Below, in pieces: positions 8,606 to 64,000 of a stretch of DNA of 64,000 nt. Source of the DNA: a virus; the IMG/VR virus record IMGVR_UViG_3300045988_054045; one strand, written 5' to 3'. Both the position numbers and the translations under genes were made by a program. The notes below the pieces were generated by a model. It saw nothing but the letters and a program-made list of their open reading frames with translations. It ran no database searches and had not been told where the DNA came from. Every line of letters starts with the position of its first letter. Position 1 is the first letter of the stretch.

Positions 8606-11600
8606 TGGGATGCATTTATGATTACAAAGGACATATCTTCCAATCTGAATTAGAATTAGATGATTTCTTACTTGAAAGGGGACATTTAGTATCTAAGTAT
8701 GGGGACATTGTGTTTAGTAAAAGCAATAGGGCTATCCAGACTTATGACTCCGTAATGAACTTAAAGATGGATACTGAGGCTCTTAAAGCAAGTAAGATAA
8801 TCTCTGAGGTTGAAGATGGAAAAAATGATATTGAAAACATTAATGTATCTGGAAATGGATATATTGGTGTGAATAAGTTTCTACAAGGTCTTAGAAACTT
8901 GGAGGGGGACTTATTATTCCCAGAATTTAGACCTGAAAATTATTGGAAGGAGATTAAGCCAAGATGGGCAGGAGGCAAGTTTGACAAAGAGGAGGCTGAT
9001 GCAATATTTGGTGAGGGAGTAGAAACTAGACCTATTGTAAGTGATGAGGAGTTTGCTAGAGCAAGAGAGGTTATTGAAAACAAATGGAAAGCTCAGGGTA
9101 AAATTGGTACTGAACTGCATAAGGCAATACAAAAGTATTTCAGTGAATCAAAGAGTGGTAGGAATATAAGGGAATCAGATGATAACTTCCTAATCAATAC
9201 GTATTTCCCATCTATATTAGACACTAAGCTAGTTCCAAGCAAGGTTATTGCAGAAACCGTCAAATACTGTAGAGACCTAGAGAAATCATTACAGAGAGAA
9301 TTTGGTGAAGACTTGATATACCTTCCAGAAGTTGCAGTTTCTGGAACTACTTCTCAAATAGGAGAATCTGGAAATCCCAATAAGCTATTAGGAGTTATTG
9401 ACTTACTAGTAATTGATGGAAGGGGAAATGCCCACATTATTGACTACAAGACATCACCCAGACCATATGTAGGAACTGCTTCTGAAGCTGGGTATGATTC
9501 TGCTAAAATCTTGACCTTCAAATACCAGCTAGGTGTGTATGAGCGTCTATTAAGAAAATATGGAATAAACACTAGCGGTTCTAGGTTGTTTGTAGCCCCC
9601 ATTCAGCTGTCAGATTTTAAGAGAGAAGGTGACGATTGGGTATACAGTGGTATAAAAGAATATTCAGGTCATGTAGAAGACTTGACTCAAGATATTAAGA
9701 CAAATATTAATATACAAGAGAATATTGACGAATTCCTTCCAGCACCGTTTGTTACTAAAGCTACAACGGAAAACCTACTCCAAACTGTAACCAGTGTAAT
9801 GTCAAAGTGGTTCCCTAAATATGATAGCGTTCCAGGAGAAATCACGGATGATATGGTAGCTGAAACTATAAAAGAAGGGAAGGGTGATAAGCCTAACCCT
9901 GAAACAGGTAAGTATGTATACTCTCCAAAAGGCAATGGGTATCCTCTTAAGGGAGATACATATGAGGAGCTATTTGTAAAGGTAAAAAGAAGGATGAATA
10001 GTATAGCCAACAATAAGATAAACACCACTCAGGTTATTAAGGAGGGTTTAATAAAGGCTATAGAGGATGAGAATCCGTACTATGAGTTTACAAAAGCACA
10101 AATTCCAGACAATCCTAGTGGAGTTAATGGATGGTTTCAAAGAAGAATGTCTAGATATTGTAACCGTAATTGGGAAGTGGTCGACTGTGAACCTGCAGAA
10201 TATCTAGGGTGCATACTACTCAGAAATAAATTTACTAATCAAATAGATGTAGTGAAAATTAGTACATCAATGCTAAAAAGGTCTAGAGAGTTAGTAAAGG
10301 GAAGACATGGTCTTACTGGAGCATTCGAAAGTGATATTATATCGCAGAATAAACCTAACTCTTTGATGATGGAAAGTGTTAATGGTAATATAGAACTAAT
10401 GGAAGCTATGTTAGTGCTTAATAATTTACCTAGTCTGTTTGAGGAGAACGCTATAGTAGGAGAAGTTAGTGTATATAACCCATTTAGAGAGGAGGGTATA
10501 TCTGCAGACAATAAACAGCTGTTATACTGCTTCAATGAGTTGGACAAGCTGTCTCCTATTGGCGTAAATAACATGAAGGGAAGAAACGCTGCTGTTAAGA
10601 TGGCGAATAGGTATGATATATTCTATAACAGGTTTAGGGAGATTATATCTAATGTTAAGGATGATACTAAGATAAACAAGAAGTGGAGAAAGTTTACTGA
10701 ATCTACCAGTGCTCTAGATGCTTGCATTGGAGACCCAACCCAGCTTAGACTAGAGCTTCTTAACCTTAGAAAAGAGTTTTTGGAAGCATTTCCTAACGTT
10801 AATGATACTAGACCTAACGATGATGTAATAGGTATGCCTCACGTCCAAGTATACAGGATGCTAGAAATGGCTATTGGTGAAATAGACGGTCTTGACTTCA
10901 GACAGCAGCTTAGTGACCATGATAAGTGGTTAGAATCAATTTATGTATGGAAAGCTGGTATGGAAGGTACATATCTTGATAATCCTGGTAATATGAAGAG
11001 TCCTATCCTAAATAAGTTGACCTCTTTAGTAACTGTGGCTTATCAGAATATCAGGGATACCGTAAATAGGTCTCAGGGAGAAATCAGGAATTTAGTCAAT
11101 GAATTAAAGAAGGACCAGAACTTCACCTATTTAAAGGAGAGGACAATAGGTAATCAGGCTACTCTATACAGAGATATGATAGTATATACAGATGATGGTG
11201 ATATACTACTAAAGAATCCAGACGACCCAACAACTGGGCTATCTGAGGCACAGAGGAAATTTCTGAAGTATTTTCTTAAAACGGTTAATTCCAACAGATT
11301 TAAGAATATGACTGAGGAAGAATTAGAGGAACTAAGGTTGTCAGGCGATGTTAGGTATTACAGGCTACCTCTAGCTGCTGGTAATGCTACATCTATTGCC
11401 TCAAGTAAGGGACTATTATCTGCAATAAAAGACAAGCTCCAGGATTGGAATCCAAAGAAGGCTGTAGAAAGGGCTAAAACAAAGGTAGAGGGCTTCTTAG
11501 ACCCAACTGACGTTAAAATTGAGAAAGTCCGTAAGGGTGAGCTATGGGAGATGACCAACTCATTTGATATTGGTGAAAAGGGTTCAGAGATACGATTAAG

Positions 11601-13305
11601 TCTAATAGAGGACAGGAAGCCAGAGTTCTTTGAAGCAAACCTTGAAACCCTGTTACTTAAACATATTACTGCATACTCAGCTAAGGAACACTTAGATGAA
11701 ATCTTCCCATCACTTCAAGCTCTAGCTATCCATTTAAGTGACATGGGTACTATTCTGAATGATAAGTTTGAAGATGATTTAAAGTATTTAAGTGACTACG
11801 TTAGAAATAAGATATTTAATCAATCTCTAATTTCTGACGACCGTAAACCTTTAGCGGCAATAACTGGAGGATTGATGGGATTTGCATCAAAGATTGCATT
11901 AGCATTCTCTCCAGTTCAAATGTATCAGCATTTAGATGGAATCTGGAAGGATATATCATTGGTAATAAGAAAACCAGATGGAGGTTTAGCTTTTACTAAG
12001 GAGAATATGACTAAGGCTTATAAGTATGCTATAGCTGATGCTATTCATTATGGTAATACCAAATCCATGTCAGAGTTATTAAATGAACAATATGGTCTTA
12101 ATGATATGGACATGAATACTTATGCTGATAAGATAAAGTCAGACCAAGCAGGTATATGGAACTTTTGGGCTTCAGCATTTAGATTTGCATCAAGACCTGA
12201 CTTCTATAACAGAATGACTATATTCGGAGCACAAATGAGGGGTGACGGATGTTGGGAAGCACACTCTGTGGTGAATGGTAAGTTAGTTTATGACTGGAAG
12301 AAGGATAGTAGATTTAGTGCATATGCTAATGGTAATACGTCTAGTCCCGATTACAAAAAGCAAGAAGCACTGTACTACACTATGGCACACCAGTTAGTTA
12401 AGGAGCACACTAGGAATGCAGATGGCTCATTATTCAGAGTGGGTGACGCTCTACCAAAGGCATACACCGTTCAACAATCGGAGAGCCATAAGGCTTTAGC
12501 TGACTCTATATATGGATATTATTCTCATGAGAAGAAATCTATGTTTCAAAGTACTCTAATTGGAGGTCTATTCTTCCAAATGTGCACATATTGGTCTTCT
12601 AAGAAGAATCAATATCTAGCCCCTGAAGGTATAAAACTACAGGGCAGACTAGTCCACTACGAAGAGAATGGTCAAAAGTATTATCACAAATTAGATGATA
12701 AGGGACAGCTTACAGATGAAGCAACTACTGAAGATACAGGATTTCCATTTTATAAATGGGAAGGACGATTTGAGGAAGGTATCTTATTGACTTTCACTAA
12801 GGTTTTAAATGACTTAGTAGTAGGTTCTTATAAAAAGGGTAGTATAAGAGAGGGATGGAAACTAATGACTAATGACATCTGGAATAATGAAGATGAGAAT
12901 CTTAGAAGGGCGTATAGGTCTAATTTACGTCAATTGTTCTATGACTTGTTCATGTTATTATTCGTTGGGGCAGTAGTCAGTGGCTCTTTGGCAGAATTTG
13001 TTAAGGATGATATTAAGGAGAGAGGTAATGATACCATGAATGATGCTGTAATAAACACAACTCTATCTCTTGGTAGTAAGATACTTACCAACTCTGCTTA
13101 TGACTTTAACTTCCTTGATGCTATTGCTGGACGAGGAACACAATGGACTCCATTCTCATTTGAAACACTTAACAGAACAGTAGATACATTCTCAAGTGTA
13201 ATATCAGGAGATAAGTCTTTGTATCAGGGTTTAATTAATACTGTGGCAGCTACTAGAGCTACTAAGCCAATCTGGGATTATATAGACCCAACTAAGGAAG
13301 AATAG
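8605..13305 (+). CDS. Giant (about 1566 aa) protein with N-terminal PD-(D/E)XK nuclease motif and a C-terminal hydrophobic helix; probable virion/ejected protein
   Basis: GVIDLLVIDGRGNAHIIDYKTSP (nt 9391-9459): D at 9400-9402 and D-Y-K at 9442-9450, with an upstream helix GTELHKAIQKYF. The ATG at 8605 overlaps the upstream stop (TAATG); the track's TTG at 8596 is less likely. Hydrophobic stretch LFYDLFMLLFVGAVVSGSLAEF at about nt 12931-12996. Confidence 0.6.
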   Translation: MGCIYDYKGHIFQSELELDDFLLERGHLVSKYGDIVFSKSNRAIQTYDSVMNLKMDTEALKASKIISEVEDGKNDIENINVSGNGYIGVNKFLQGLRNLEGDLLFPEFRPENYWKEIKPRWAGGKFDKEEADAIFGEGVETRPIVSDEEFARAREVIENKWKAQGKIGTELHKAIQKYFSESKSGRNIRESDDNFLINTYFPSILDTKLVPSKVIAETVKYCRDLEKSLQREFGEDLIYLPEVAVSGTTSQIGESGNPNKLLGVIDLLVIDGRGNAHIIDYKTSPRPYVGTASEAGYDSAKILTFKYQLGVYERLLRKYGINTSGSRLFVAPIQLSDFKREGDDWVYSGIKEYSGHVEDLTQDIKTNINIQENIDEFLPAPFVTKATTENLLQTVTSVMSKWFPKYDSVPGEITDDMVAETIKEGKGDKPNPETGKYVYSPKGNGYPLKGDTYEELFVKVKRRMNSIANNKINTTQVIKEGLIKAIEDENPYYEFTKAQIPDNPSGVNGWFQRRMSRYCNRNWEVVDCEPAEYLGCILLRNKFTNQIDVVKISTSMLKRSRELVKGRHGLTGAFESDIISQNKPNSLMMESVNGNIELMEAMLVLNNLPSLFEENAIVGEVSVYNPFREEGISADNKQLLYCFNELDKLSPIGVNNMKGRNAAVKMANRYDIFYNRFREIISNVKDDTKINKKWRKFTESTSALDACIGDPTQLRLELLNLRKEFLEAFPNVNDTRPNDDVIGMPHVQVYRMLEMAIGEIDGLDFRQQLSDHDKWLESIYVWKAGMEGTYLDNPGNMKSPILNKLTSLVTVAYQNIRDTVNRSQGEIRNLVNELKKDQNFTYLKERTIGNQATLYRDMIVYTDDGDILLKNPDDPTTGLSEAQRKFLKYFLKTVNSNRFKNMTEEELEELRLSGDVRYYRLPLAAGNATSIASSKGLLSAIKDKLQDWNPKKAVERAKTKVEGFLDPTDVKIEKVRKGELWEMTNSFDIGEKGSEIRLSLIEDRKPEFFEANLETLLLKHITAYSAKEHLDEIFPSLQALAIHLSDMGTILNDKFEDDLKYLSDYVRNKIFNQSLISDDRKPLAAITGGLMGFASKIALAFSPVQMYQHLDGIWKDISLVIRKPDGGLAFTKENMTKAYKYAIADAIHYGNTKSMSELLNEQYGLNDMDMNTYADKIKSDQAGIWNFWASAFRFASRPDFYNRMTIFGAQMRGDGCWEAHSVVNGKLVYDWKKDSRFSAYANGNTSSPDYKKQEALYYTMAHQLVKEHTRNADGSLFRVGDALPKAYTVQQSESHKALADSIYGYYSHEKKSMFQSTLIGGLFFQMCTYWSSKKNQYLAPEGIKLQGRLVHYEENGQKYYHKLDDKGQLTDEATTEDTGFPFYKWEGRFEEGILLTFTKVLNDLVVGSYKKGSIREGWKLMTNDIWNNEDENLRRAYRSNLRQLFYDLFMLLFVGAVVSGSLAEFVKDDIKERGNDTMNDAVINTTLSLGSKILTNSAYDFNFLDAIAGRGTQWTPFSFETLNRTVDTFSSVISGDKSLYQGLINTVAATRATKPIWDYIDPTKEE

Positions 13306-38001: not shown

Positions 38002-41000
38002 TTATAGCCATTCAGAAGGTACTAATCTAGACTCTAATTGGTCAGCGTTGGTAATGTTACTCTTCTTAACCCCAGTTAAGTAACCTTGTACAATATTTAA
38101 TATTGGGTATGTAGAAGAACTAAATGTCGGAACTGCACCTTGCAGCTTAGTGCAGTAATAAAACATACCACTAATATCATTAATATTATAGCATAACTTC
38201 AACAGGTCCTCAGTGATTAAAAGTAAACCATAGTCAGTCTCTTCATCTGAACCTCCAGTAGTAACTGCAAATAAGTTAGATGCATTAACTATTCTCGTGT
38301 TGTTTTTAAACAAGTTAGGGAAATCAAACTGGGGATATATCTCCTGAGTTCCTCCTGCATTGTATGCCCGCTTGTCAAATTTACAATTAGCCCAAACTTC
38401 AGAGATAATCTTTAGGTTAGGATTGTTAGCAAATAGGTTACTATTTACATCTACCCCAACCTCAAATACTGTTTGTGAGAACATTCCAGTAATGTCTTCC
38501 AGTTTTGCGTTATACTTAAATAGGTCAGGCGGATATTTAATACCTCTTGTAAACGTATCACCTTGTAGATTAACAAAAGCACAGAACCTTGTAGTCCTAA
38601 ATACTCCTTGCATTTTAGGAGTATCAATAAGTGATTCAAATAATTTACATGGTATTCTACCTATCATTCCGTCCCACTTTCCAGTTTGCTCAATAGACCA
38701 ATCTCCTGAATCAGGCATAAACACTCTGACTTGTTCTGGATAATTAAAATCTATCATAGAATCTTCAAGAGTACAATCAGCATGACAGTATCTAAAGTAA
38801 TCTGTTGGAATCATATAATTCTGATAACCCACTTCAGCACGACCAGTTCCAGCTTGGCTAATAGCCGTTTTCTGCTGTGTGTCATACTTGAAGTACTTTT
38901 CAGTAAGTCTAGTTTTAACTTCTTCTAAACCACTTTCTGTACTTGAAGCTCCTTCCCATCCATAACCATCAAGATACCAAACATCGAATGCCTGCTCTCC
39001 TGGATTATAGTCTTCACTACCAGAATCTTCATTCCTATCATAGTTATATGACTTCTTCATATTACTTACATCTAACTTATAGGTAACTCTGTTTCCAGCA
39101 TTCTTAACAATGTGGTCAGCCCATGTTGTCCACGTGCTGTTAAGGATTAACTCAGAGCCTATATCCATAGTTCTAGTCTCGTCGTATCCAAGACACCAGC
39201 AACCTTTGAACACACCCTTCATGTTGGTAATTGTCCTGTTTATAGATTTAGTTCCATCGCTATTATCCCTACTCATAAAAAATAGACGGTAAGGAATATA
39301 TCCAAACACACCACTATTCTCAAACGCGTAGGAAACATCTTGAAGTGGACAATTCTTAAATCCTTCTCCTACTAGCTTAAGCTTAAGGTTGTAACAACCA
39401 CTAAACAAACTCTTTATACTAGTAAGACTTATACAATCATCAAACATTCCTGCTGGGGGGAATTGATATATTTTACCATCATTATCTAAGTCAATTCCAC
39501 TAAAGAATCCTTCGATACTATTCAATATTCTACAATTCCTAAATATATTAGAAGGGATACTTTGTGCTCCAGACTCCTCAGTGCATTTCAATCCATTGAG
39601 GATGCCAATAGCCTGCCTTAGTGTTCCACTAATCCCCTGGAACATATCTGCCATTTCTGATAGATTTACAGTTGCCTCTCCTCCACTATATTGGAAAGGA
39701 TATTGTATAGAACTAAATGTTGGTATGTACCAAGTAGTACTTCCATCATTAATAGTTTGACTTATTCCTCCAAACACATTGGGTCCAATTTTTCCTACTA
39801 GTTTAACTCCTGCATATACGGAATCATTTAGAATCAGAGACTGAGCCACTTTGTTAATTGTATGGAACAAGTAAGTGTTACCACTACTATCGTTATCTAC
39901 TGTCATTCTTACTCCACTACACCCAGTGAACACCCCCTTTGGATATGGACTTACTAAATTCCTAAGATTTGTAAAGAATGTTTTAGAGCTTAGTAATCCG
40001 TCTGAAAGAACAACTGCCCTAGTATTCTCACAACTCTTTAGCTGTTGACAATCTCTAAACATATAATCAATCTTTACTAAGGGACTGTATTTACCATCAG
40101 CTGGAGCAAAAATATTATTATCAATCCACTCTAGGCTAGTACTATCAAATGCAGCTTCTGCATCCGTAAGTTTGGGTAGGAAATCTAATATTCCCCAAGT
40201 AGAGTCCTTAGATGGACTGTAATCAGAGGTTCTAGAGAAGAATGGACCAGTTAGGTTAGTTCCACTAAATGCTTCCTTAATACTACTAACATTAGGACAT
40301 ACTCTAAACAAATCATACCACATATCTCCAGTAATATTGGCACAACCTTTGAACATTCCTTCTAATGAAACAATGTTATCAGTAAGCCTTACCATTAGGT
40401 ACTTGAAATCATTATATGATACCTTAGCACATCCCTCAAACATAAAGTAAACATCAGTAAGTTTTTGACTAAATGTTATATTGGTGACATCATTCCCCTC
40501 TAAGAAAACATCTGTGCCATATTGTGTATATATCAAATCTGGATTTAGATAAAGTTGGCTACAACCCCTAAATGTTTCTCCTCCTTCAAGGGAAAGATGC
40601 CCTTTAATTCTCTGAAGAGAAATACAATCTCTAAACGCACCTCTAGGCACTTCTATTGGATTATCCCTATCATTCTTGCACCTTACTTCTACTAATTGCT
40701 TACAACTTATAGCTTCAATACTCTCCAGATTCGGGAATGCAGTTAAATCTAGAAAATCTGGAGCTTGGTCATTATACTTCAAGGATGATAATGATGTATT
40801 AGATATAACCAACCTCTTTAAGCTGAAGAAGTTAGGTTGTCCGTTAACATACAAGGAAGCTAACGTAATATCACTAGTCATAGTTCTACTCAAGTCTAAT
40901 GTCTCTAAATTCCAAGCACCTGTTAACTCAAGTTTTAGAGAAGGGTTGTTCTGACCAGGAATACTAAATTCCTTCATACCTGGACAGTTATCTATTGTTA

Positions 41001-44000
41001 CTTGAACTAATGGGCTAACAGAATTATTAACTGATGAGTAAGGAATCTGAATAGTTTCCATGCTTTCACAGTTTCTAATAATTACTGTTTTTACATTCGG
41101 TGGGATGTTCAAAGTCTTTAATGCACCACAGTTATTTATTTCTATAGATGTTAACTTCAAACAATCATCAATCAGCAATGATTCTAGGAATGATTGATTC
41201 TCTAGTTTAAGACTAGTAATATCAGTTCCAGACATATTTAGAATCTTTAATACAGCTGATGTAGGGAATGTAATCTTAGTAATAGAAGAATAAGAAACAT
41301 CCAACTCCTGAATCTTACGACAACCACTTAAGTCTAATGTATATGCAGAAGCAGTAGAACCAATCAGTTTAACCTTACTTAGATTTAACTTCTTTATATT
41401 CTTTAGACCAATATCATTAGCCTCATTGTATACACCTCCCTGGAAGAAGTAAGCAGCATCCACATTAGTCAAGCCACTTAAGTCTAGCTCTTGTAACATA
41501 GGTAGGTTAATATTATCCAAACCTGTCCAAGGGTAGCTCTTGAATTTAGTAAAGTCCGTTATATACTTGTTAGCATACATATACACCACTGTTTCACCAG
41601 TAGGCATAGGTAAAATAACTGAAGTAGGAGTTTCACTAATCCAGAAAGCACCAGTAGTTTTATCGTGTGAATAATGATATAATATTTGGCTACTTGCTGT
41701 AATATCTGTACTAAACCTAACCTCAGTAGCTGAACCAGTAGCTTTATTAGAAGCCCACAGACCAGTGATAGGAGATTCAATAGTAGTTGGTAGCAAGTTA
41801 GTATTATCCTTATAACCATACACACCATCTAAGAACATTATTCTCTTTCTAAACCAATCCTTAACGTGCATTACACGATTACCATGTAAGAACTTTAATT
41901 GGCTAAAGTCAGTACTATCCTCATATTTACCTGTGTTTGGGTCATATGTCTTAGATATAGCAAGATATTTAATCTTGTAATCATAATTAAACATAATAGA
42001 ACCTGTTTTTTCAGTATATGACTGATAGTAATCCTTAATGAACTTATCAGGGTCTGGGAATAGGTTAGTTCTTAGATTCACATATAATGATTCCAAGCTA
42101 GTTCTGTTTTCAGTACTACCGCTATCTATACCAGCTAAGTTCTCTAATACTTCCCAAATTCTATTCCACCAAGATGCAAAGAATTGTTTATAACTATCAG
42201 TAGATACATAATTCTTCTCCTGTGTATATTGAGTAATACCAGTATCCTGTGAAGAGATATTATACCATCTATGTAGATGTGCCCAATATTCTACAATATC
42301 TTGTCCAGCATTGTTCAAACCAAATGCCGTATCCATATCATAGAAGCAACAATACCATACATCAGTACCCCAACTACGAATAGTTAAGTTCTTACACATA
42401 GAGTCCACACAACCAAATAGTAATGCAATCATAAAATAAGCACAAGCATTATCCCAGTTTAGATGCTGGTCACAAGCACTAAAGTTATAATAAGCATTCT
42501 TATCCAAATCATAGAACTCTCCAGGAATAGGTTTAGTTGGGGTTTGTCCAGCATCATCCATTGTATATTTCTGGATACGAGTAAGAGCCATATTAGCCAT
42601 CTGAGTATAGAACTTCTGTACTTGATTATAACCGATTGATTCATCCCTAGATGTATACATTACATCACCCATGAACTGCACAATCTTCATATCGTCTTGT
42701 TGGAATGCACCTTGTGCAGAAGAGTTTTGGTTGATTTCAACAGAATATACACCGTTGCTAACTCCAGTATTCCATCTATCAATATTCTCTGTATAATCAG
42801 TTACCAATGTTGGCCCATCTTGATTTATCTTAGTGTAATCAGTAAGTAACTTCAATCCAAGATTAAAGAAGGCATACCTACCTAAGTTAAAGTTATAGAT
42901 ACCACAGAATTTAGGTTGTTTAATAGTTCCATCAGCATCAGGTGCATATCTAATAAACAGAAGAACTGGGAAACCTTCAGAGGTATGTTTAATTTTACCT
43001 CTAATTGAGTTAGCCTTATCAGCATCTCCTCCCCAAACATCATTACCTAACGACATAGGTGGTGTAGCTCCAAATGGGGTAATGGATTGTCCAGCAGAAT
43101 TTGTAGCTCTACCATTAACAATCTGACCAATTACTACATTATTAACGTGAGCGGAGTCTACTACGTCAGCCTTTAATGTAAATTCATTTTCAGGCAACCA
43201 ATCATCAGTAGGTTGGAATAGCATCTTCTTACCTGTTTGGTCTACATCCCCCATGTAGATTTCAAAGTTCTTAGCATTATATGATAGAGAAGATGTACCT
43301 TGTAGACCAATAGTAACACCGTTGTTCTCGGATACACCACTAGGTGTACTAATAACTACTTTACCTTTACTATCTTGATAAGTAATCTTTACGGGGAACT
43401 TAGTACCCATTACTTCTACCTTATCAGATGCAGAGAATATAGCAGTTGAGTAAGGCTCAAACAATGTTGGGCTATTAGATGTTTCCTCTACTAATACAAT
43501 AGGGTAAGGAGTGTTGATTTCCATCTGTTCAACTAGCTTAGCATATAGCAATTCACCAGTTAGGAAACCACCTTTACCACCATCAAGAGTTTTATCCCAA
43601 ATTAGACAGTTACCTGCACTATCAAATAGGTTCTTAGTTCTCAACTCAGCATCAAGAGAAGCATCAATTTGTCCTCTAACTAGTCTGGCTTGCTCTGTTG
43701 CAGATATATAGTTTTGTACAATGGCATATTCACTTTGTGAAGACGTATATAGTTTAATATCGTAGATACTAACATCAGAGAATCTACTTCTAATTCCATT
43801 ATCGTTTCTACATCCGAAATAGAAATCAGTACCAAACATCCAGTCAATGTCTGATTGAAGTACTCTACTTACAGCAGATAGTACACCATTTACATAGATT
43901 TTGAAGTACCAAGCATTTCCTGATAGTAGTGACACATCTAGGTCTACAGTTAATAACTCATTTTGAGGTAATTTAACCGTTAGTGTGTCAGCAGAACCTA

Positions 44001-45732
44001 TCTTACATACAGCTTTCTCTAATGAAATTTCATATCCAGTCTTTAGCTCTCCATCCTCATATTGACCAATACCACATACCACTTCCTCTGGATAAGAAGA
44101 AGCCTCTGCTTTATAAGTACAAGATATATGGAAACCTACGGGTTGGAAGAACGATACACCAGCACCAATATCAACAGCAGGGAACATTTGCTCTGCTACC
44201 TCTAAATAACCATATGCTTCACCGCTTAGCCTTGTTGCAGGTATTTGATTTACTCCATCACTGTCTTGCAAGAAACCACTAGTTTTACCATTTACACCCT
44301 TTAGAGTAAAGTTTACCCCATCTGGAAATTTGGATGCAAATGCACCTTCATATATAAACTCCCCACTGTTCTTAATAGGATAATTCCAAGTACCAGTTGC
44401 AGTGTTAGGAAATCCAGTAATTTTACTGAAGTATGCAAGTAGTGTATGCATATCGTTATTAGCATACATCTCTGTACTAACGCTTTCTACTATTCTACAA
44501 GTAACAGTCTTAGTATATTGTGCAGATGTATCACCAGGGTCATTAACCGCATATCCAAACAGTGTAATTCTTAAATACTCACCTGGATTATTAACAGATA
44601 GATTTACTGTACTATATACGAACCTATTAGTTTCACTCTTGTTAATATTCTTAATTGTACCAGTATCAAGTAATGACACTTCACCACTTTCATTCATTAA
44701 ATGGATTTTGTAATCCATGTTGAATGTACTGTATTTACTAAGACCATAGCTAAAGTAGTAGCTAAATCCAAGTTGTGAACCTTGACCATATTGAGTCAAA
44801 TCATCAATAGTCTCCCCAGGATTTGATGATGGAGTAAACTCTGTAATATCCTCAGTTACAATAACTAGGTTATTACTATCAGCTACAGTAACGTCAAACT
44901 TGATTTGCTCTGAAGATAGTACCTCACCATTAAGAGTAGTACTAGCTTGTGCAACGAAGTAAAATCTCTGACCAGCTTTAGGATTGAAGTGTTCACTCTC
45001 GAATAGCAACTTACGAGCATCATAGCTTAATGCTCTAATAGCTGTAGTAATGTTACCTACTCTAGCTACTTCAATACCATTAATAGTCATCCAGAACTCT
45101 GCGGGACTTTGAAGAATGTTATTAGTTACAGTATAGTTAAGAGGTACTTCTGCAACACCACCCATATACATAGTCTTAGGTGGAATGGATTGAATTTCTA
45201 GAGATATAGCTCCAGCTACAATCTTTACATATGTAGGGGTTGCATAAGTATTATCATTATCATAGGCAGATAATTCTACGTCAGTAGTTCCTGATAATCC
45301 AGTAATAGTAATATCAGTTCTAGCCATAGAATATTTCTTCCATGTTCCTAATGTCTTGTTGGTAGCTAAATCTTTAGCAATTACAGTAAATGACTTTTTA
45401 ACACCGCCACTCTTAATTAATATATTAAGCGTAACAGTATTGGTAGCAGTATAGACAGTAGTTCCTTCAGCTACATCAATAGTATATTCAGAACCATCAC
45501 CACCTTCTCCACCACCGCCACCTCCACCTTTGGCACCATTAAGGTATATCCAGGCAAGGTTTTGCTCTAGCTTAGTCATTCTATTATCTAGCTTTGTAAA
45601 GCCATTGTCAATCGAAACTGAATCCCCAGCTTCATTTAAGAAGCCAGGGTTAGTCAGTTCCAATTCTGAAGCATTAGAAGCACCGTCAATTACCCATTTT
45701 CCAGTGACTTCATCATAATGTTTTATTTTCAT
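38002..45732 (-). CDS. Giant multidomain fibre/receptor-binding protein (2576 aa): N-terminal anchor + poly-Gly linker, LamG-like, CotH-like, classical LRR, BspA-type LRR
   Basis: GGGGGGGEGGDG linker (nt about 45495-45530). LamG-like YFKIYVNGVLSAV ... VSIYDIKLY (about 43700-44350). CotH-like GLQGTSSLSYNAKNFEIYM ... FTLKADVVDSAHV ... YDMDTAFG (about 42300-43330). LRRs LDLSGCRKIQELDVSYSSITKITF and similar (about 40680-41520). Repeated MF.GC..L units (about 38100-40660). Confidence 0.6.
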   Translation of the reverse strand: MKIKHYDEVTGKWVIDGASNASELELTNPGFLNEAGDSVSIDNGFTKLDNRMTKLEQNLAWIYLNGAKGGGGGGGEGGDGSEYTIDVAEGTTVYTATNTVTLNILIKSGGVKKSFTVIAKDLATNKTLGTWKKYSMARTDITITGLSGTTDVELSAYDNDNTYATPTYVKIVAGAISLEIQSIPPKTMYMGGVAEVPLNYTVTNNILQSPAEFWMTINGIEVARVGNITTAIRALSYDARKLLFESEHFNPKAGQRFYFVAQASTTLNGEVLSSEQIKFDVTVADSNNLVIVTEDITEFTPSSNPGETIDDLTQYGQGSQLGFSYYFSYGLSKYSTFNMDYKIHLMNESGEVSLLDTGTIKNINKSETNRFVYSTVNLSVNNPGEYLRITLFGYAVNDPGDTSAQYTKTVTCRIVESVSTEMYANNDMHTLLAYFSKITGFPNTATGTWNYPIKNSGEFIYEGAFASKFPDGVNFTLKGVNGKTSGFLQDSDGVNQIPATRLSGEAYGYLEVAEQMFPAVDIGAGVSFFQPVGFHISCTYKAEASSYPEEVVCGIGQYEDGELKTGYEISLEKAVCKIGSADTLTVKLPQNELLTVDLDVSLLSGNAWYFKIYVNGVLSAVSRVLQSDIDWMFGTDFYFGCRNDNGIRSRFSDVSIYDIKLYTSSQSEYAIVQNYISATEQARLVRGQIDASLDAELRTKNLFDSAGNCLIWDKTLDGGKGGFLTGELLYAKLVEQMEINTPYPIVLVEETSNSPTLFEPYSTAIFSASDKVEVMGTKFPVKITYQDSKGKVVISTPSGVSENNGVTIGLQGTSSLSYNAKNFEIYMGDVDQTGKKMLFQPTDDWLPENEFTLKADVVDSAHVNNVVIGQIVNGRATNSAGQSITPFGATPPMSLGNDVWGGDADKANSIRGKIKHTSEGFPVLLFIRYAPDADGTIKQPKFCGIYNFNLGRYAFFNLGLKLLTDYTKINQDGPTLVTDYTENIDRWNTGVSNGVYSVEINQNSSAQGAFQQDDMKIVQFMGDVMYTSRDESIGYNQVQKFYTQMANMALTRIQKYTMDDAGQTPTKPIPGEFYDLDKNAYYNFSACDQHLNWDNACAYFMIALLFGCVDSMCKNLTIRSWGTDVWYCCFYDMDTAFGLNNAGQDIVEYWAHLHRWYNISSQDTGITQYTQEKNYVSTDSYKQFFASWWNRIWEVLENLAGIDSGSTENRTSLESLYVNLRTNLFPDPDKFIKDYYQSYTEKTGSIMFNYDYKIKYLAISKTYDPNTGKYEDSTDFSQLKFLHGNRVMHVKDWFRKRIMFLDGVYGYKDNTNLLPTTIESPITGLWASNKATGSATEVRFSTDITASSQILYHYSHDKTTGAFWISETPTSVILPMPTGETVVYMYANKYITDFTKFKSYPWTGLDNINLPMLQELDLSGLTNVDAAYFFQGGVYNEANDIGLKNIKKLNLSKVKLIGSTASAYTLDLSGCRKIQELDVSYSSITKITFPTSAVLKILNMSGTDITSLKLENQSFLESLLIDDCLKLTSIEINNCGALKTLNIPPNVKTVIIRNCESMETIQIPYSSVNNSVSPLVQVTIDNCPGMKEFSIPGQNNPSLKLELTGAWNLETLDLSRTMTSDITLASLYVNGQPNFFSLKRLVISNTSLSSLKYNDQAPDFLDLTAFPNLESIEAISCKQLVEVRCKNDRDNPIEVPRGAFRDCISLQRIKGHLSLEGGETFRGCSQLYLNPDLIYTQYGTDVFLEGNDVTNITFSQKLTDVYFMFEGCAKVSYNDFKYLMVRLTDNIVSLEGMFKGCANITGDMWYDLFRVCPNVSSIKEAFSGTNLTGPFFSRTSDYSPSKDSTWGILDFLPKLTDAEAAFDSTSLEWIDNNIFAPADGKYSPLVKIDYMFRDCQQLKSCENTRAVVLSDGLLSSKTFFTNLRNLVSPYPKGVFTGCSGVRMTVDNDSSGNTYLFHTINKVAQSLILNDSVYAGVKLVGKIGPNVFGGISQTINDGSTTWYIPTFSSIQYPFQYSGGEATVNLSEMADMFQGISGTLRQAIGILNGLKCTEESGAQSIPSNIFRNCRILNSIEGFFSGIDLDNDGKIYQFPPAGMFDDCISLTSIKSLFSGCYNLKLKLVGEGFKNCPLQDVSYAFENSGVFGYIPYRLFFMSRDNSDGTKSINRTITNMKGVFKGCWCLGYDETRTMDIGSELILNSTWTTWADHIVKNAGNRVTYKLDVSNMKKSYNYDRNEDSGSEDYNPGEQAFDVWYLDGYGWEGASSTESGLEEVKTRLTEKYFKYDTQQKTAISQAGTGRAEVGYQNYMIPTDYFRYCHADCTLEDSMIDFNYPEQVRVFMPDSGDWSIEQTGKWDGMIGRIPCKLFESLIDTPKMQGVFRTTRFCAFVNLQGDTFTRGIKYPPDLFKYNAKLEDITGMFSQTVFEVGVDVNSNLFANNPNLKIISEVWANCKFDKRAYNAGGTQEIYPQFDFPNLFKNNTRIVNASNLFAVTTGGSDEETDYGLLLITEDLLKLCYNINDISGMFYYCTKLQGAVPTFSSSTYPILNIVQGYLTGVKKSNITNADQLESRLVPSEWL

Positions 45733-56861: not shown

Positions 56862-57247
56862 TATTCAATTATTTTAGTACTTAGTAAGTTGTCTAATCTT
56901 AAAGCTGTTTGTGCCAGCGTTTCAGTAGGAATCACATAGTTACCAGTTGCATTTACAAGTATGTCAGTACCATCTAAAACTGGATTGGTTTTAATGGGCT
57001 TCTTATTAACGGTCTTGTTTCCAATCTCGTCAATCTTATCCTGCATATTATCCAACATCTCCTGGATTTTGTCTAATATGTCAACGATTTCCTTATTATC
57101 AAGGAATACAACCCATTTCTCACCATCATATAACAGCATCTTACTGTTATCCTTAATCCAGATATGGTAAATAGTTGGAGGAGTCATATCGCCCCTCCAG
57201 AAATTTACCTGCTTATTATTTACCATTGCATCTGCCATGTTATTCAA
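56861..57247 (-). CDS. Hypothetical small fibre-associated protein
   Basis: 128 aa with an IWIKDNSKMLLYDGEKWV segment followed by a coiled-coil. Overlapping start and stop codons. Confidence 0.45.
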   Translation of the reverse strand: MNNMADAMVNNKQVNFWRGDMTPPTIYHIWIKDNSKMLLYDGEKWVVFLDNKEIVDILDKIQEMLDNMQDKIDEIGNKTVNKKPIKTNPVLDGTDILVNATGNYVIPTETLAQTALRLDNLLSTKIIE

Positions 57248-60125
57248 GTATTATAGAAGCATTAGTAGTAATATTATTAACTATCTCTTCTAATGCTGTA
57301 AGTTTGTCCATTAGTATTTTTCCTTGAGCTGCTGATAGACTTATCTTGGTATCATCTGTAACTAGGTTATTCACTACTATCGGAAGTATCCTCTTTGTAC
57401 AAGTAAACTTAAAAGCCTCCTCTTCACTTTCATTATACTCTAAATTGGTAACTATCTCTAAATCTTCATAACTGTTTAGATGATACATGGTAGTTACACT
57501 TATACTCCTAACTGAATTTATGTCAGTTTGGCTAGTCCCAACTTTATTGTATGCTACAACATAATTATCAATAGAGTACTCCACTACAGAGGTATAGGAT
57601 GAGAATAGTAATTCCATAAATTCGATAGCTTCATCTCTCACATCAAAAGGTACCTCAGAGTTTAAAATATCATTATAAATTACTGATTGGGCTGAATTTA
57701 AATCAGTTCTAATAGAGTCAACCTCTGACTTAATAGTGGTATCGTTGTAGTTCTCTAGACTGTCAACTTTATCCTTATATTGGGTGGTAAAGTCGTTAGT
57801 AGAAAGTCCTTTACCTTCTTCCTTTATTACAAATTTACTAACATCAGGAATCTCAGTCTTTAAAGCATAACCACTTAAATCAACTCCAGGTATAGCAGTA
57901 ATTTGTTGCTGAACCCAAGTTTCAGTAGCTAAACCTTCAATACTTGGGATAACGGGTGTATTAATAAGGTCATTATAATCCTTAGAGAACAGTTCTGATT
58001 TGTCTGCCTTACTATTCAAAGTATTCTTTACACTACTTATCTCAGTGTTAATACCTCCTATGGTAGTATTCTGAGCTAATATAGCATCACTCAATTTCTT
58101 GAATGTATTGTAAGATGGGTCAGCACCTTCTAAGATTATGTTAAACCTTCCATCAGTATATTCCTTAGCACTAAGTAAAGCATCGGCAGCCGCACCTGCA
58201 GATTCAGCACCAAGTTCTTCTAATGTATATGTAGGTTTAGTAGGTTGTTTAGCCCATGAAGGAACAGTAGGGTCTGTTTCTGTAAACTCTGTCAGGTAAC
58301 CTTTATCCTCTAATTCCTGTTCAGTAACTAGGTTCTCTGGCAATGAATTTAGATAACCACTATCATTTTCTAATTGAGAAACTCTAGTAGGTATTTCAGT
58401 CTTATCAGCCTTACCACTAATATCTGGAATATCAGTTTTATTAGCTTTCTTCTCAACTTCTGAGCCTAAGTTTGTTATGAGTTGCCTAACAGCAGAATCA
58501 TTGTAGTTAGTCAGCCCAGCTAATTTAGCCTTTTCCTCTATACTAAAATTCTGCTCTGATAAACCCATACCAGCCTGTTTATCAACCTTATTATTCCAAT
58601 TATCAATGTCCTGCTGATTTATGTTCTTGGCAGCACTGGCTGCAAACTGAGGTTCTAATTCTTGGGTTAAGTAACCTTTAGCCTCTAACTCTTCATCAGT
58701 AACATACTCTTCTGGAACTTCTGATAAGTATTCAGAATCATTCTCCAACTGAGAAACTTTGGTAGGTATCTCACTCCTATCAGCTTTATTAGAAACGTCT
58801 GGAATCCTATCATCTACTTCCTTCTTAGTATAGTAGTTGTTGAGTTGAATATCACCACCCTCAATAGCTGCAAGTTTATCGTCTACTTCCTCTTTAGTAT
58901 ATACAGTATGTTTGTCAGCTTTTGCAGCTAATAGCTCTCGTATAGTTGTTGTATCAATACTCTCTGGATTATATCCACTCTGGTCAAGTATTTCTACAGT
59001 TGTCTCTCCCAATCCAGGTTGGGCACTCTTAAATATATAATATAGGTTGCTAAATATTTCTTGAGTTCCAAGTAATTTAAAACCACCTATAATGCTACTA
59101 ACTCCTAGAACTGTATTAGCTCCGTTAGGAATCATAACATATATATATTCATTAGCTCCCGCATTTACTGTATAAACATTATCAATAGTTCTATCTAACT
59201 TAGTATAGTCTGGAGAAGTTCCAAAGTAATTTGGATATTTAATGTCAAATGTAACAACTCTTGTAGCACTAATATCCTCATACTTATACTTTAGAGTAAT
59301 TACCATAGATGTAGTCCTGTTAGTAAAAGTATACTCTCTTACATCAGGACTTAGTACAACATCATTGATAGACTGTTCTACAACATCCTTATAATATTCC
59401 CAAGTAACGGTTACATCCGTAGGTTCGTCTCCATAACACATATACTCTGGGTCTAGAGATATAGCCTTGACGTTATCATCAATAGATGCAGCTGCAATTT
59501 TAGCATTAACCCATTCAGTAGATGCAATTCTATTAGAATTATCTGTCATCAGGGGTAATGTAGTAGTTGGAGTTCCAGCAAAGTTAGGAGAGAATATGTC
59601 AGCTTTGTTTTTAAATCTAATTTCTATCTCGCAAGCCCATTGAGCGAGTTTAAGATTAATCTCATCAATAACCTTATTAATGTCGAAGGCTATTGAATCA
59701 GTTACAAAGGTATATAAATCTTTTTGATTAGACAAGTTACCTTTGATGTTTCCCCACTTTAGAGCATATTCATCTGCTATACCGAGGTTAATTCTGGCTA
59801 TTGTTCTTTGGTATTCATCAGTTAATTCTGAGAATAAATTCTCCTTCTGAAATCCATCGTCTCCACCAGTACACCCATAATATTTAGAAGTATCACAATC
59901 ATCCTTGATACAGATGTGTTCTACTCCTTCCTCTTCTATTTTTACCCCATCTATCTTCTCTATAGTAATAACACCATAGTCAGCACAGATTCCTTCAACT
60001 TCTTCTTTTTCTATAACTCCATCTATTATCTTGGTGTCTGGCTTTATATTGGAGATAGAATGTGGGTAATCAGGTAAAATGGGAGCCTCTTGTTCTTGTT
60101 CGTCAAGACGTATAAACTCTGCCAT
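57240..60125 (-). CDS. Tail fibre protein (961 aa) with duplicated KAD..EIPT.VSQLENDS.YL modules
   Basis: Two copies of a roughly 45-aa module (nt about 58285-58435 and 58665-58805) plus related KADK heptad-like segments. Confidence 0.6.
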   Translation of the reverse strand: MAEFIRLDEQEQEAPILPDYPHSISNIKPDTKIIDGVIEKEEVEGICADYGVITIEKIDGVKIEEEGVEHICIKDDCDTSKYYGCTGGDDGFQKENLFSELTDEYQRTIARINLGIADEYALKWGNIKGNLSNQKDLYTFVTDSIAFDINKVIDEINLKLAQWACEIEIRFKNKADIFSPNFAGTPTTTLPLMTDNSNRIASTEWVNAKIAAASIDDNVKAISLDPEYMCYGDEPTDVTVTWEYYKDVVEQSINDVVLSPDVREYTFTNRTTSMVITLKYKYEDISATRVVTFDIKYPNYFGTSPDYTKLDRTIDNVYTVNAGANEYIYVMIPNGANTVLGVSSIIGGFKLLGTQEIFSNLYYIFKSAQPGLGETTVEILDQSGYNPESIDTTTIRELLAAKADKHTVYTKEEVDDKLAAIEGGDIQLNNYYTKKEVDDRIPDVSNKADRSEIPTKVSQLENDSEYLSEVPEEYVTDEELEAKGYLTQELEPQFAASAAKNINQQDIDNWNNKVDKQAGMGLSEQNFSIEEKAKLAGLTNYNDSAVRQLITNLGSEVEKKANKTDIPDISGKADKTEIPTRVSQLENDSGYLNSLPENLVTEQELEDKGYLTEFTETDPTVPSWAKQPTKPTYTLEELGAESAGAAADALLSAKEYTDGRFNIILEGADPSYNTFKKLSDAILAQNTTIGGINTEISSVKNTLNSKADKSELFSKDYNDLINTPVIPSIEGLATETWVQQQITAIPGVDLSGYALKTEIPDVSKFVIKEEGKGLSTNDFTTQYKDKVDSLENYNDTTIKSEVDSIRTDLNSAQSVIYNDILNSEVPFDVRDEAIEFMELLFSSYTSVVEYSIDNYVVAYNKVGTSQTDINSVRSISVTTMYHLNSYEDLEIVTNLEYNESEEEAFKFTCTKRILPIVVNNLVTDDTKISLSAAQGKILMDKLTALEEIVNNITTNASIILE

Positions 60126-62070: not shown

Positions 62071-62448
62071 TTATACATTAAAGTCAGCTCTTACTTTAGT
62101 CTTTATATTTCCTACTAGTGTAAGGTAGTCTAAATATTTCTGTCTATCTGTCTGGTCATCGGATAGTCCTAGAACAATACTATTAGAGCTGTTGATTAAA
62201 TCAAACTCCTCATCTTGGTCTACATACTGCCTAATAATGGCTTTGATGCATTCTTTGTGGTCTGGTTGACCAAACAGATGAACTTGAATATACGTCCACC
62301 TTGTCTCTTGTGTTACCTCTTCAGTCTCAGGGTCAGTAACCTCTACTACTTTAGACTGAATATCATAATTATAGTAATATGTGCCATTACCTAGCTTCTC
62401 TATTGAGTTAGGTTGTACATTCATTTCTATTCTTTTTGGTTCTAACAT
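62071..62448 (-). CDS. Hypothetical acidic protein overlapping the RT 3' end
   Basis: 125-aa ORF whose start overlaps the last 41 nt of the RT gene. It is acidic and beta-rich, so it does not resemble Avd. Confidence 0.45.
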   Translation of the reverse strand: MLEPKRIEMNVQPNSIEKLGNGTYYYNYDIQSKVVEVTDPETEEVTQETRWTYIQVHLFGQPDHKECIKAIIRQYVDQDEEFDLINSSNSIVLGLSDDQTDRQKYLDYLTLVGNIKTKVRADFNV

Positions 62449-63643
62449 AAGGTCTTATTTTAAAATTTACTGGGAATGAATATCTGGTTAGAGAGTAGAA
62501 TAGTTCCCTGCTCTTACTCTCAAAGTAATAAGATTTGTTATTGTATACAAAGTTAACTCTAAAACACTTACTATAGCTAACCATATCCACAACATGAATA
62601 TACTTGTTATAAAATCTAGAAATATTAGACTTCTTCCCGTCCCAATTAGAGAACCTTAAACCTGTATCTCTTTGAATCTTTCTTAACAGATTCTTTGAAT
62701 TACAGAATTTCAGCCAACCAAAATAGGATTGCATTCTCCTTCTTAGTTCTTGTCTGTCTATTTTACCAGTTTGGTATCTACTAACAAGTCTAAATAACCT
62801 AATTTTAATTGACTTTCTCAGTAATACATGGGTGTGATAGAACCTATAGCCAACGAAGTCTATACCTCTAACATCTACTGGGAATATTTGGTAATTTGAT
62901 TTCAACCTTAAATTTAGAACCTCTTTTAAGTACATCTTTATTGCTATGAGTACTCTTCTCAAGAAGTCCTTATCACTGCTGAGAATTACAATATCATCAG
63001 CATACCTGAAGTAGAATTTACATTTTAATTCTTCCTTAACCCAATGGTCAAAGTAAGCTAAGTATAAGTTTGCAAAGAATTGAGAAAGATAGTTTCCAAT
63101 AGGAACGCCGTCTGCTGAATAAATGATTCCGATTAGCAGGATTAATAAATTTTTATCCTTAATCTTACGTTTGATTATATCACACAATATGTCATGGTCA
63201 ATAGAAGGATAAAACTTCTTTACATCCATCTTTAAACAATAGAGTGTTTCATTTGGATGCTTTACCAAAGCTGCTTTTAAATCGTATGCTACATTATGAA
63301 TACCTCTATCCTTAATACAAGAATAAGTTTGCTTGATGAATATCTTAGTCCAGATAGGCTCCATTACATTCATAATAGCATGATGTGTTATTCTATCTGG
63401 ATAGTATGGTAATCTAAATATCAACCTTTCTTTGGGTTCATATATTTTAAATGTACTATACTCAGAAGTTTCATAAACTAAATCTCTTAGCTGTTCTGAA
63501 AGTCTTCTATTCTCTTCCTCTCTGTTCTTATCATGTTTGAGGATTCCCCATCTTACTGATTTATGCTTTCTAGCTTTATCATCTGCTTTCTCAATATTCT
63601 CTATATCATATACCTGTTCATGTAAATAGCCTATACGCTTCAA
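62408..63643 (-). CDS. DGR-type reverse transcriptase
   Basis: RT motifs read in order: KERLIFRLPYYPDRITHHAI, LKMDVKKFYPSIDH, GVPIGNYLSQFFANLYL (nt 63080-63100 encode IGNYLSQ), FRYADDIVILS (YADD at nt 62993-63004), IDFVGYRF. The start is TTG: a TAA lies two codons upstream and there is no in-frame ATG for about 90 codons. Confidence 0.85.
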   Translation of the reverse strand: MKRIGYLHEQVYDIENIEKADDKARKHKSVRWGILKHDKNREEENRRLSEQLRDLVYETSEYSTFKIYEPKERLIFRLPYYPDRITHHAIMNVMEPIWTKIFIKQTYSCIKDRGIHNVAYDLKAALVKHPNETLYCLKMDVKKFYPSIDHDILCDIIKRKIKDKNLLILLIGIIYSADGVPIGNYLSQFFANLYLAYFDHWVKEELKCKFYFRYADDIVILSSDKDFLRRVLIAIKMYLKEVLNLRLKSNYQIFPVDVRGIDFVGYRFYHTHVLLRKSIKIRLFRLVSRYQTGKIDRQELRRRMQSYFGWLKFCNSKNLLRKIQRDTGLRFSNWDGKKSNISRFYNKYIHVVDMVSYSKCFRVNFVYNNKSYYFESKSRELFYSLTRYSFPVNFKIRPYVRTKKNRNECTT

Positions 63644-63717
63644 GTCTTATATATTTATTGTGGAAGCTTTCGAGAATTAACCTACTAACACCCTGTTATT
63701 AAATACTACGTTGTCTT

Positions 63718-63743
63718 TTGCCAAGAGGCAAGGGTGCTGTTTA
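63718..63743 (-). repeat. Spacer stem-loop plus distal arm of a 14-nt inverted repeat bracketing the TR
   Basis: - strand RNA: UAAACAGCACCCUU (63743-63730) is the exact complement of AAGGGUGCUGUUUA (63938-63925). It is immediately followed by the hairpin UUGCC-UCUU-GGCAA (63731-63718). Confidence 0.6.
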
Positions 63744-63782: not shown

Positions 63783-63938
63783 TAAGCCTACATTAGTATT
63801 AGCATTGCTGACTCCATTATTAGAATTGAAGTAGCTAAGACTAGCATTACTACCATTATTAGCGTTGCTGCTAACGATGAGTGTTTTGTAATAATTTTCT
63901 TGTCCAGCACCAACAGAATATAGGTAAACAGCACCCTT
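63783..63938 (-). repeat. DGR template repeat (TR) candidate, non-coding; 5' boundary uncertain
   Basis: Lies directly upstream of the RT in the same orientation. Stops occur in all frames upstream, and there is no start codon. In the frame set by the VR match it has at least 10 AAY codons within 29 codons (AGC AGC AAC GCT AAT AAT GGT AGT AAT ... AAT ACT AAT GTA GGC). Confidence 0.65.
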
Positions 63939-63966: not shown

Positions 63967-64000
63967 TTAAACTACTTTATTTAGTGTCCTGAAGCCCACA
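63967..64000 (-). CDS. 3' end of the presumed DGR target gene (partial; ...VGFRTLNKVV*), containing the last bases of the VR
   Basis: Open frame from the window edge to the TAA at 63969-63967. Nt 63991-64000 (+: GAAGCCCACA) aligns to the TR at 63783-63792 (+: TAAGCCTACA) with 8/10 identity, and both mismatches fall at TR adenines on the coding strand. The GFR motif is typical of C-type-lectin-fold VR ends. Confidence 0.5.
   Translation of the reverse strand, partial: VGFRTLNKVV

Follow-up and report, generated by a model that had tools for sequence, protein, structure and literature searches.

A non-coding, AAY-rich tract beside a reverse transcriptase gene is very probably the template repeat of a DGR in a large, apparently crAss-like gut phage

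Near one end of a 64,000-nt stretch of viral DNA (hereafter the window; IMG/VR record IMGVR_UViG_3300045988_054045), a tract with the periodicity of protein-coding sequence and many AAY codons lies outside any gene, next to a reverse transcriptase (RT) gene. What is such a coding-like segment doing in non-coding DNA? A sequence-only reading of the interval 63783-63938 had taken it for the template repeat (TR) of a diversity-generating retroelement (DGR), on the basis of its composition and its position beside the RT. Our results support this reading, since we found a cognate variable repeat (VR) and adenine-specific differences between the two copies, and we are close to certain that the tract is the TR of a DGR in a large human gut phage, apparently a crAss-like one. 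The features by which a DGR is recognized are present at the locus, namely an RT of the DGR type, a TR/VR pair whose differences are confined to adenines, a VR at the 3' end of its target gene, and a hypervariable VR alongside a conserved TR.

The letter string on which the earlier interpretation was built occurs exactly as quoted, on the minus strand and in its given place. It does hold ten AAY codons, but the list running from ACA to TTA comprises 34 codons rather than the 29 claimed. The absence of a start codon was borne out by the AAY frame, which has no ATG, GTG or TTG from the upstream TAA to the tract, and between 63990 and 63940 each of the three minus-strand frames does have a stop ahead of the tract. 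The interval 63783-63938 contains the repeat but was drawn too wide: homology to the VR extends over 104 nt, from 63887 to 63784, and the 51 nt upstream of the repeat within the earlier interval are taken up by one arm of an RNA helix, the 5' one (63938-63925), and by a spacer. The TR itself (63784-63887, minus strand; AAAACACTC...GTAGGCTT) is non-coding, contains 36 adenines, and carries the ten AAY codons in the VR reading frame. Its hypervariable span covers TR positions 10-95 (63878-63793), and its 3' end sits 140 nt before the RT start. Across the 127,798 stretches of 34 codons that the window offers in its six frames, none has more than ten AAY codons (mean, 1.64; standard deviation, 1.33); 14 overlapping stretches reach this number, and every one of them lies on this tract. 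The sole mechanical ORF over the tract (48 aa, GTG start, 63788-63934) is in a frame that differs from the AAY frame. Nor is the tract translated as part of a longer gene in the full contigs, where the upstream target gene ends at the TAA at 63969-63967; the frame of that gene meets many further stops beyond this TAA and is not the AAY frame. Marking the tract as a non-coding template is of value for annotation, as gene callers could call it as a small ORF.

Inside the window, no VR came up when both strands were scanned with mismatches tolerated at adenines, nor in a general search for repeats. The window ends within the target gene, of which the last 34 nt are present (63967-64000, minus strand; reading ...VGFRTLNKVV, with the stop TAA at 63969-63967), and 64000-63992 (TGTGGGCTT) corresponds to the final 9 nt of the VR, the remainder of which falls beyond the window end at would-be positions 64095-64001. 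Public assemblies that encode the identical RT protein supplied full contigs of up to 189 kb (L001-L008), and an exact-pattern scan of IMG/VR added 21 more contigs (L009-L029). In all of L001-L029, a gene for a 681-aa tail protein ends 324 nt upstream of the RT, and the full contigs contain the cognate repeat whose existence the sequence-only reading depended on, as a 104-nt near-copy 208 nt upstream of the TR. One of these contigs, L004 (human gut metagenome SRR413680, 189,018 bp), showed 0 mismatches to the window in the 11,000 nt compared; its TR maps to window positions 63887-63784 and its VR to would-be positions 64095-63992. When we compared the two copies in L004, we counted 26 differences, each at one of the 36 TR adenines, an outcome with a chance probability of ~1e-12.

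Between the end of the VR and the stop codon of the 681-aa gene lie 8 codons (24 nt). Target recognition of the Bordetella type involves an IMH and IMH* at the respective 3' ends of VR and TR and a GC-rich inverted repeat beyond the VR. After the last variable adenine (TR position 95), the two copies here share ~9 nt, TGT[A/G]GGCTT, with one fixed A/G difference; no GC-rich IMH was recognized, and no inverted repeat or hairpin was found downstream of the VR. A degenerate version of the TR with every A replaced by N, run over IMG/VR, matched the TR and one VR per contig and revealed no remote second VR. TR and VR were adjacent wherever both were held in one stored stretch, and in two contigs they were split over separate stretches. 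The target protein matches phrog_5302, annotated as "tail protein" (E = 1e-90), and its N-terminal half carries tail-fibre-type repeats; neither the protein nor its profile had a match among Pfam, NCBIfam or PDB sequences. Two AlphaFold models of the C-terminal part were of low confidence (pLDDT 58 and 49), and the best Foldseek matches of the target model, to formylglycine-generating enzyme (FGE) and EgtB, were not significant (E of at least 4). FGE and EgtB represent the fold family (C-type-lectin) of known DGR variable proteins; an Ig fold is the other one on which a DGR may display its VR. The DGR accounts for the observation that the C-terminus of the tail protein differs in every assembly of this phage. 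In L008, the target gene encodes 708 aa rather than 681 aa.

The same adenine specificity was apparent at the population level, for which we used 24 distinct VRs from related contigs with a common TR core. Counted by TR base, 601 of 610 substitutions (98.5%) fell on adenines; 67.8% of the cells at TR adenines were changed, compared to 0.4-0.7% at C, G and T. The AAY positions proved to be the variable codons, as the sequence-only reading anticipated for population data: all ten AAY codons are hypervariable, with 6-11 different amino acids each, and the VR bases found at their adenines were A at a frequency of.38 and C, G and T at.21 each (n = 479). The TR was identical to that of the window for 16 of the 24 distinct VRs, and the remaining contigs had one to four TR differences, mostly at third codon positions in the VR frame. 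Where lineages have acquired non-adenine variants in the TR, the variant was mirrored in the VR of the same contig in 14 of 14 cases, with none of those VRs keeping the majority base. Such mirroring is a signature of continuing TR-to-VR information transfer, and the DGR is apparently active, to judge from these sequence comparisons. To look beyond the immediate relatives, we retrieved RT homologues down to 49% identity (L034-L113). A VR-TR-RT arrangement with adenine-specific mismatches was present at 69 of the 71 related viral loci having full upstream sequence, as well as at 74 of 80 prokaryotic genome or metagenome-assembled genome (MAG) loci, mostly from Bacteroidota, with RTs 52-73% identical. 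TR length variants also occur, in L010/L047 (IMGVR_UViG_3300045988_022008) and L049 (IMGVR_UViG_3300045988_025321): one such TR lacks 6 nt (two codons, GCTAAT) near the 3' end, with no in-register VR found, and another lacks about 55 nt of the interior.

The adjacent RT gene (62408-63643, minus strand) encodes 411 aa from a TTG start and matches Pfam RVT_1 (E = 4.7e-18) and phrog_1423 (E = 2.6e-115). The two sequence marks of a DGR-type RT, motif 4 ([ILV]GxxxSQ) and a YxDD box, can be read directly in the translation as IGNYLSQ (GxxxSQ) and YADD. NCBIfam has no DGR-specific model, and all its matches were below their cut-offs. RTs annotated as parts of DGRs are homologous to the protein, in Bordetella phage as well as in crAss-like phages; those of crAss-like phages are the closest, with 57-59% identity for crAssphage LMMB and related genomes in which DGRs have been described. 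Most DGRs also encode Avd. Among the neighbouring proteins of 87, 139, 125, 264 and 61 aa, we found no match to Avd, the absence of which is expected for the Avd-less lineage 3 DGRs (PMC5758913) and is also a feature of published crAss-like cassettes (PMC7290462). Because Avd is absent, the Bordetella model is not transferable in full. Downstream, a 125-aa gene (62071-62448) begins within the RT ORF, the two having 41 nt in common (62408-62448); the 125-aa protein belongs to phrog_11557, of unknown function, is acidic, and had no Avd-like match. Two RT homologues at 57-59% identity, L099:1501-2721 and L100:1501-2718, contain 6 and 8 in-frame stops, respectively, under the standard code. These are probably stop-codon-recoded relatives; stop-codon recoding has been reported for some Zeta crAss-like phages (PMC12386605).

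The sequences that flank the TR appear to form a structured RNA. A 14-nt segment 37 nt upstream of the TR (63925-63938, minus strand; AAGGGTGCTGTTTA) is the perfect complement of a segment located 40 nt downstream of the TR end (63730-63743, minus strand; TAAACAGCACCCTT), and the two arms are paired in the thermodynamic fold. Covariation was counted on an alignment of 18 non-redundant constructs from which the TR had been deleted. Across lineages, 8 of the 14 pairs of the helix had changed on both sides in a compensatory manner, and 92.9% of the cells were paired; none of 500 shuffles (0/500) reached the observed values on any measure, and sliding the partner by 1-3 columns reduced pairing to 36-53%. 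In the closer sequences the arms were aligned by MAFFT from sequence alone, and for the most distant ones complementarity served to locate the 5' arm. As a chance control for this procedure, we searched shuffled upstream sequence, in which the best complement averaged 9 of 14 positions and 13 was never reached in 2000 shuffles. The two-arm arrangement recurs with other sequences in relatives (AGGGGTACTATTTA / TAAATAGTACCCTT, AGGGCACTATTTA / TAAATAGTGTCCT, AGGGCGCTATTTC / GAGATAGCGTCCT, AGGTTGTTATTTT / GGAATAACAACCT and AGGTTGGTTTATT / AATAGACTAACCT). Directly after the helix comes a hairpin, GCC-TCTT-GGC (63729-63720), followed by AAAA (63719-63716; the whole at 63716-63729, minus strand); the hairpin was 100% paired, with one compensatory pair. 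The fold of the whole 331-nt region was not more stable than that of shuffled sequences (z = -1.0), so the structural claim rests on covariation and not on energy.

This layout has a counterpart in the Bordetella phage DGR ribonucleoprotein, where cryo-EM defined the cPRT Stop, made of an upstream:downstream duplex, a short stem-loop and adenosines (bioRxiv 10.1101/2023.10.23.563531). Handa et al. predicted a cPRT Stop in 207 of 278 Avd-containing DGRs, with duplexes that average 13 bp (bioRxiv 10.1101/2023.10.23.563531). The 14-bp helix, hairpin and AAAA match the cPRT Stop layout, and an architecture surveyed until now in Avd-containing DGRs is present and covaries in an Avd-less lineage as well. 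Moreover, a 94-nt segment between the 3' arm and the RT start (63642-63735, minus strand) gave a full-length, sub-threshold match to the Rfam family RT-17 (RF03020), with 28.9 bits where the gathering score of the family is 40.4 (E of about 1e-3). L096 and L106 scored 34.7 and 34.6 bits for RT-17 at the same position, also below 40.4, and a match to the Rfam family RT-18 was likewise below threshold. The match spans RT-17 model positions 1-95 and, as in RT-17, stands immediately upstream of the RT gene; the conserved blocks CCUU-GCCNCUUGGC-AAAA and UAGUAG...CGAA are common to both. RT-17 as modelled in Rfam differs from the element described here in comprising only the downstream half, without the pairing to sequence upstream of the TR. 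The RNA in the window appears to resemble RT-17 in position and working, without certified membership in the family. In BPP-1, Weinberg et al. (2017) located RT-10 in the interval that separates TR and RT, and they raised the possibility that further RT motifs are parts of DGRs (PMC5737381). The overlap between the downstream half of the helix and the RT-17 match links the RT-17-like RNAs of Rfam to DGR spacer RNAs.

A mosaic arrangement was seen in L013/L095 (IMGVR_UViG_3300035647_000071). Its 5' arm and most of its TR are those of the window's lineage (with an RT of the 92%-identity type upstream), and the TR 3' end (GTCAGC), the spacer, the 3' arm (GAGATAGCGTCCTT) and the RT, at 74% identity, are those of another lineage. 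The helix keeps 12 of 14 pairs. L013/L095 is apparently a recombinant cassette.

Could the same observations arise in a locus that is no longer at work? If the DGR were a fossil, the TR, VR and RT would be real, homing would have ceased, and the VR differences would be relics of past activity, a scenario for which the missing canonical GC-rich IMH and VR-proximal hairpin might be cited. However, every independent contig has a different VR, yet the TR is identical for 16 of 24 distinct VRs; C, G and T are equally frequent at AAY adenines (.21/.21/.21), which is what repeated fresh draws would produce; recent non-adenine TR variants have reached the matching VR in 14 of 14 cases; and the RT ORF is intact in all loci examined. 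We therefore regard cessation as very unlikely. We give still less credence to the idea that the tract is a decaying partial duplication, a pseudogene fragment of the 3' end of the tail-protein gene that came to lie beside an RT gene by chance. The tract does resemble the end of the neighbouring gene and is untranslated, but neutral decay would not confine 98.5% of the differences to the adenines of one copy, nor leave that copy nearly invariant while the coding copy varies, nor preserve a covarying flanking RNA structure across RT lineages to about 53% identity.

That the tract might itself be coding, either through the 48-aa GTG ORF at 63788-63934 or because recoding or read-through extends the tail-protein gene into it, could draw on the presence of that mechanical ORF in another frame and on the relatives L099 and L100, which appear to use stop-codon recoding. 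The AAY periodicity, however, shares its frame with the VR and not with the 48-aa ORF, and the target frame, which differs from the AAY frame, runs into TAA TAA and, beyond these, more TAA and TAG codons. In addition, the late genes of the window are long uninterrupted ORFs under the standard code, and the TR variants that distinguish lineages are third-position changes in the VR frame. A coding role is accordingly so improbable that it can be given almost no weight, and the tract is best read as the TR of a DGR that appears to be working.

For such a DGR, the following course of events can be proposed. The TR would be transcribed within a non-coding RNA that extends from about 63940 to the RT start, in which the 14-bp helix would pair the sequences 37 nt upstream and 40 nt downstream of the TR, with the 3-bp tetraloop hairpin and A-run directly after it. 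By analogy with Bordetella, this helix element may position the template on the RT and, once the 5' edge of the TR is reached, bring cDNA synthesis to a stop. Misincorporating opposite adenines, the RT (62408-63643) would copy the TR into cDNA, which would then take the place of the 104-nt VR with which the adjacent tail-protein gene (681 aa) closes at its 3' end. The ten Asn (AAY) codons would be randomised, together with ATC, TAC and ACT codons, for about 10^13 possible protein variants as counted from the codon table, and the presumed effect is an altered binding of the tail protein. Transcription, priming, cDNA integration and a receptor-binding role for the target are steps that we infer.

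The TR adenines do not all behave alike. Eight of them are followed by G (TR positions 16, 19, 37, 46, 52, 75, 79 and 99; window positions 63872, 63869, 63851, 63842, 63836, 63813, 63809 and 63789), and at these positions the VRs of this phage have G in 88-100% of cases and never C. The pattern extends to 62 related phage VR/TR pairs (L034-L113), in which an adenine before G had become G in 94% of cases (n = 416) and never C or T, and to 67 independent genome or MAG DGRs (mostly Bacteroidota; L114-L193), in which it had become G in 98% (n = 185). At four-fold synonymous third positions before G, we counted 45 G and 3 A in the phage pairs and 47 G out of 47 in the genome and MAG DGRs. Among 72 distinct genome or MAG TRs, sites between the first and the last AAY codon gave G in 62 of 64 cases spread over 17 pentamer contexts; the synonymous sites before G in the same span gave 28 of 28, with 26 of these in the single context GCAGG.

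Amino-acid selection cannot explain this pattern and was rejected, because the bias holds at synonymous sites. Repair of a G·T mismatch to the parental G is unlikely, given that G is not enriched at AAY adenines (.21), and a general rule by which the 3' neighbour is copied was rejected because the second positions of AAY codons do not obey it. On the simplest reading, RTs of this lineage would place dC opposite a template adenine that has G on its 3' side. On the wider proposition, that in this Avd-less RT lineage the adenine error is programmed by the 3' neighbour, so that A before G is copied as G almost always, we are evenly divided. If it is true, AGY codons in the TR hard-wire glycine (GGY) in the VR, leaving the AAY-type adenines and a few others to truly diversify, and the rule would sharpen the prediction of which TR adenines generate diversity. 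For the Bordetella RT in E. coli, recent measurements showed context effects in which the 3' neighbour weighs most (PMC12875486), and the pattern described here, if the proposition holds, would be their natural-population counterpart, much stronger than the effects reported there (PMC12875486). We found no statement of such a rule for natural DGRs in the DGR literature, of which our coverage was limited.

The host appears to be a large crAss-like gut phage. Independent assemblies carrying the element reach 185-190 kb. Against classical crAss portals, the portal protein shows about 25% identity over 40% of its length, and against those of unclassified gut phage contigs it shows 50-69%; no near-identical genome was present in the GenBank phage collection searched. 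DGRs of crAss-like phages have already been published, and the element is a new member of this documented type. In Alpha crAss-like phages, the order target-VR-TR-RT, without avd and with a tail-fibre target, has been described (PMC7290462). Epsilon crAss-like phages have the same cassette order and an RT with GxxxSP (PMC11054128), and Zeta crAss-like phages have the same order with GxxxSQ and RTs of up to 414 aa, with DGRs in 18 of 43 genomes (PMC12386605). Of these, the Zeta description is the one that the element fits best, which makes the Zeta group a candidate placement. It has in common with both LMMB (PMC7290462) and the Zeta group (PMC12386605) the cassette order, the lack of avd, and a tail or tail-fibre target that is diversified C-terminally; with the Zeta group it further shares the genome size class, GxxxSQ and the RT length (411 aa here, up to 414 aa reported). 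Unlike that of LMMB, which has 486 aa, the target here has 681 aa.

As in Bordetella phage BPP-1, the transfer from TR to VR is adenine-specific, there into the tip of a tail fibre and here into a tail protein, and the TR is flanked by an RNA duplex with a short stem-loop and adenosines after it. The element departs from BPP-1 in having no Avd, AAT rather than AAC codons, no recognizable GC-rich IMH, no VR-proximal hairpin, and a spacer RNA that resembles Rfam RT-17 and not RT-10 (PMC5737381). The order target-TR-RT without avd also characterizes the lineage 3 DGRs of Bacteroidota (Wu et al. 2018, PMC5758913), although the carrier here is a very large phage genome of the virulent type and not a bacterial chromosome or prophage.

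Elsewhere in the window we noted giant ORFs at 334-7518 (plus strand, 2394 aa), 8596-13305 (plus strand, 1569 aa) and 38002-45732 (minus strand, 2576 aa). The 2394- and 1569-aa ORFs had no PHROG match at E <= 1e-5, and only two of the seven large ORFs scanned against PHROG, the 2394- and 1569-aa ORFs among the seven, matched any family, indicating that this phage is poorly covered by current family libraries. A 961-aa fibre-like gene (57240-60125) encodes peptide repeats (EIPTKVSQLENDS...) typical of phage fibres and contains a 140-nt direct repeat (58291-58430 and 58666-58805), the copies of which are 71% identical and 375 nt apart. In L003 and L005, at locus positions 369-1013 (about 9 kb upstream of the RT and outside the window), a 214-aa GIY-YIG/I-TevI-like homing endonuclease gene replaces the 183-aa gene of other, otherwise collinear contigs.
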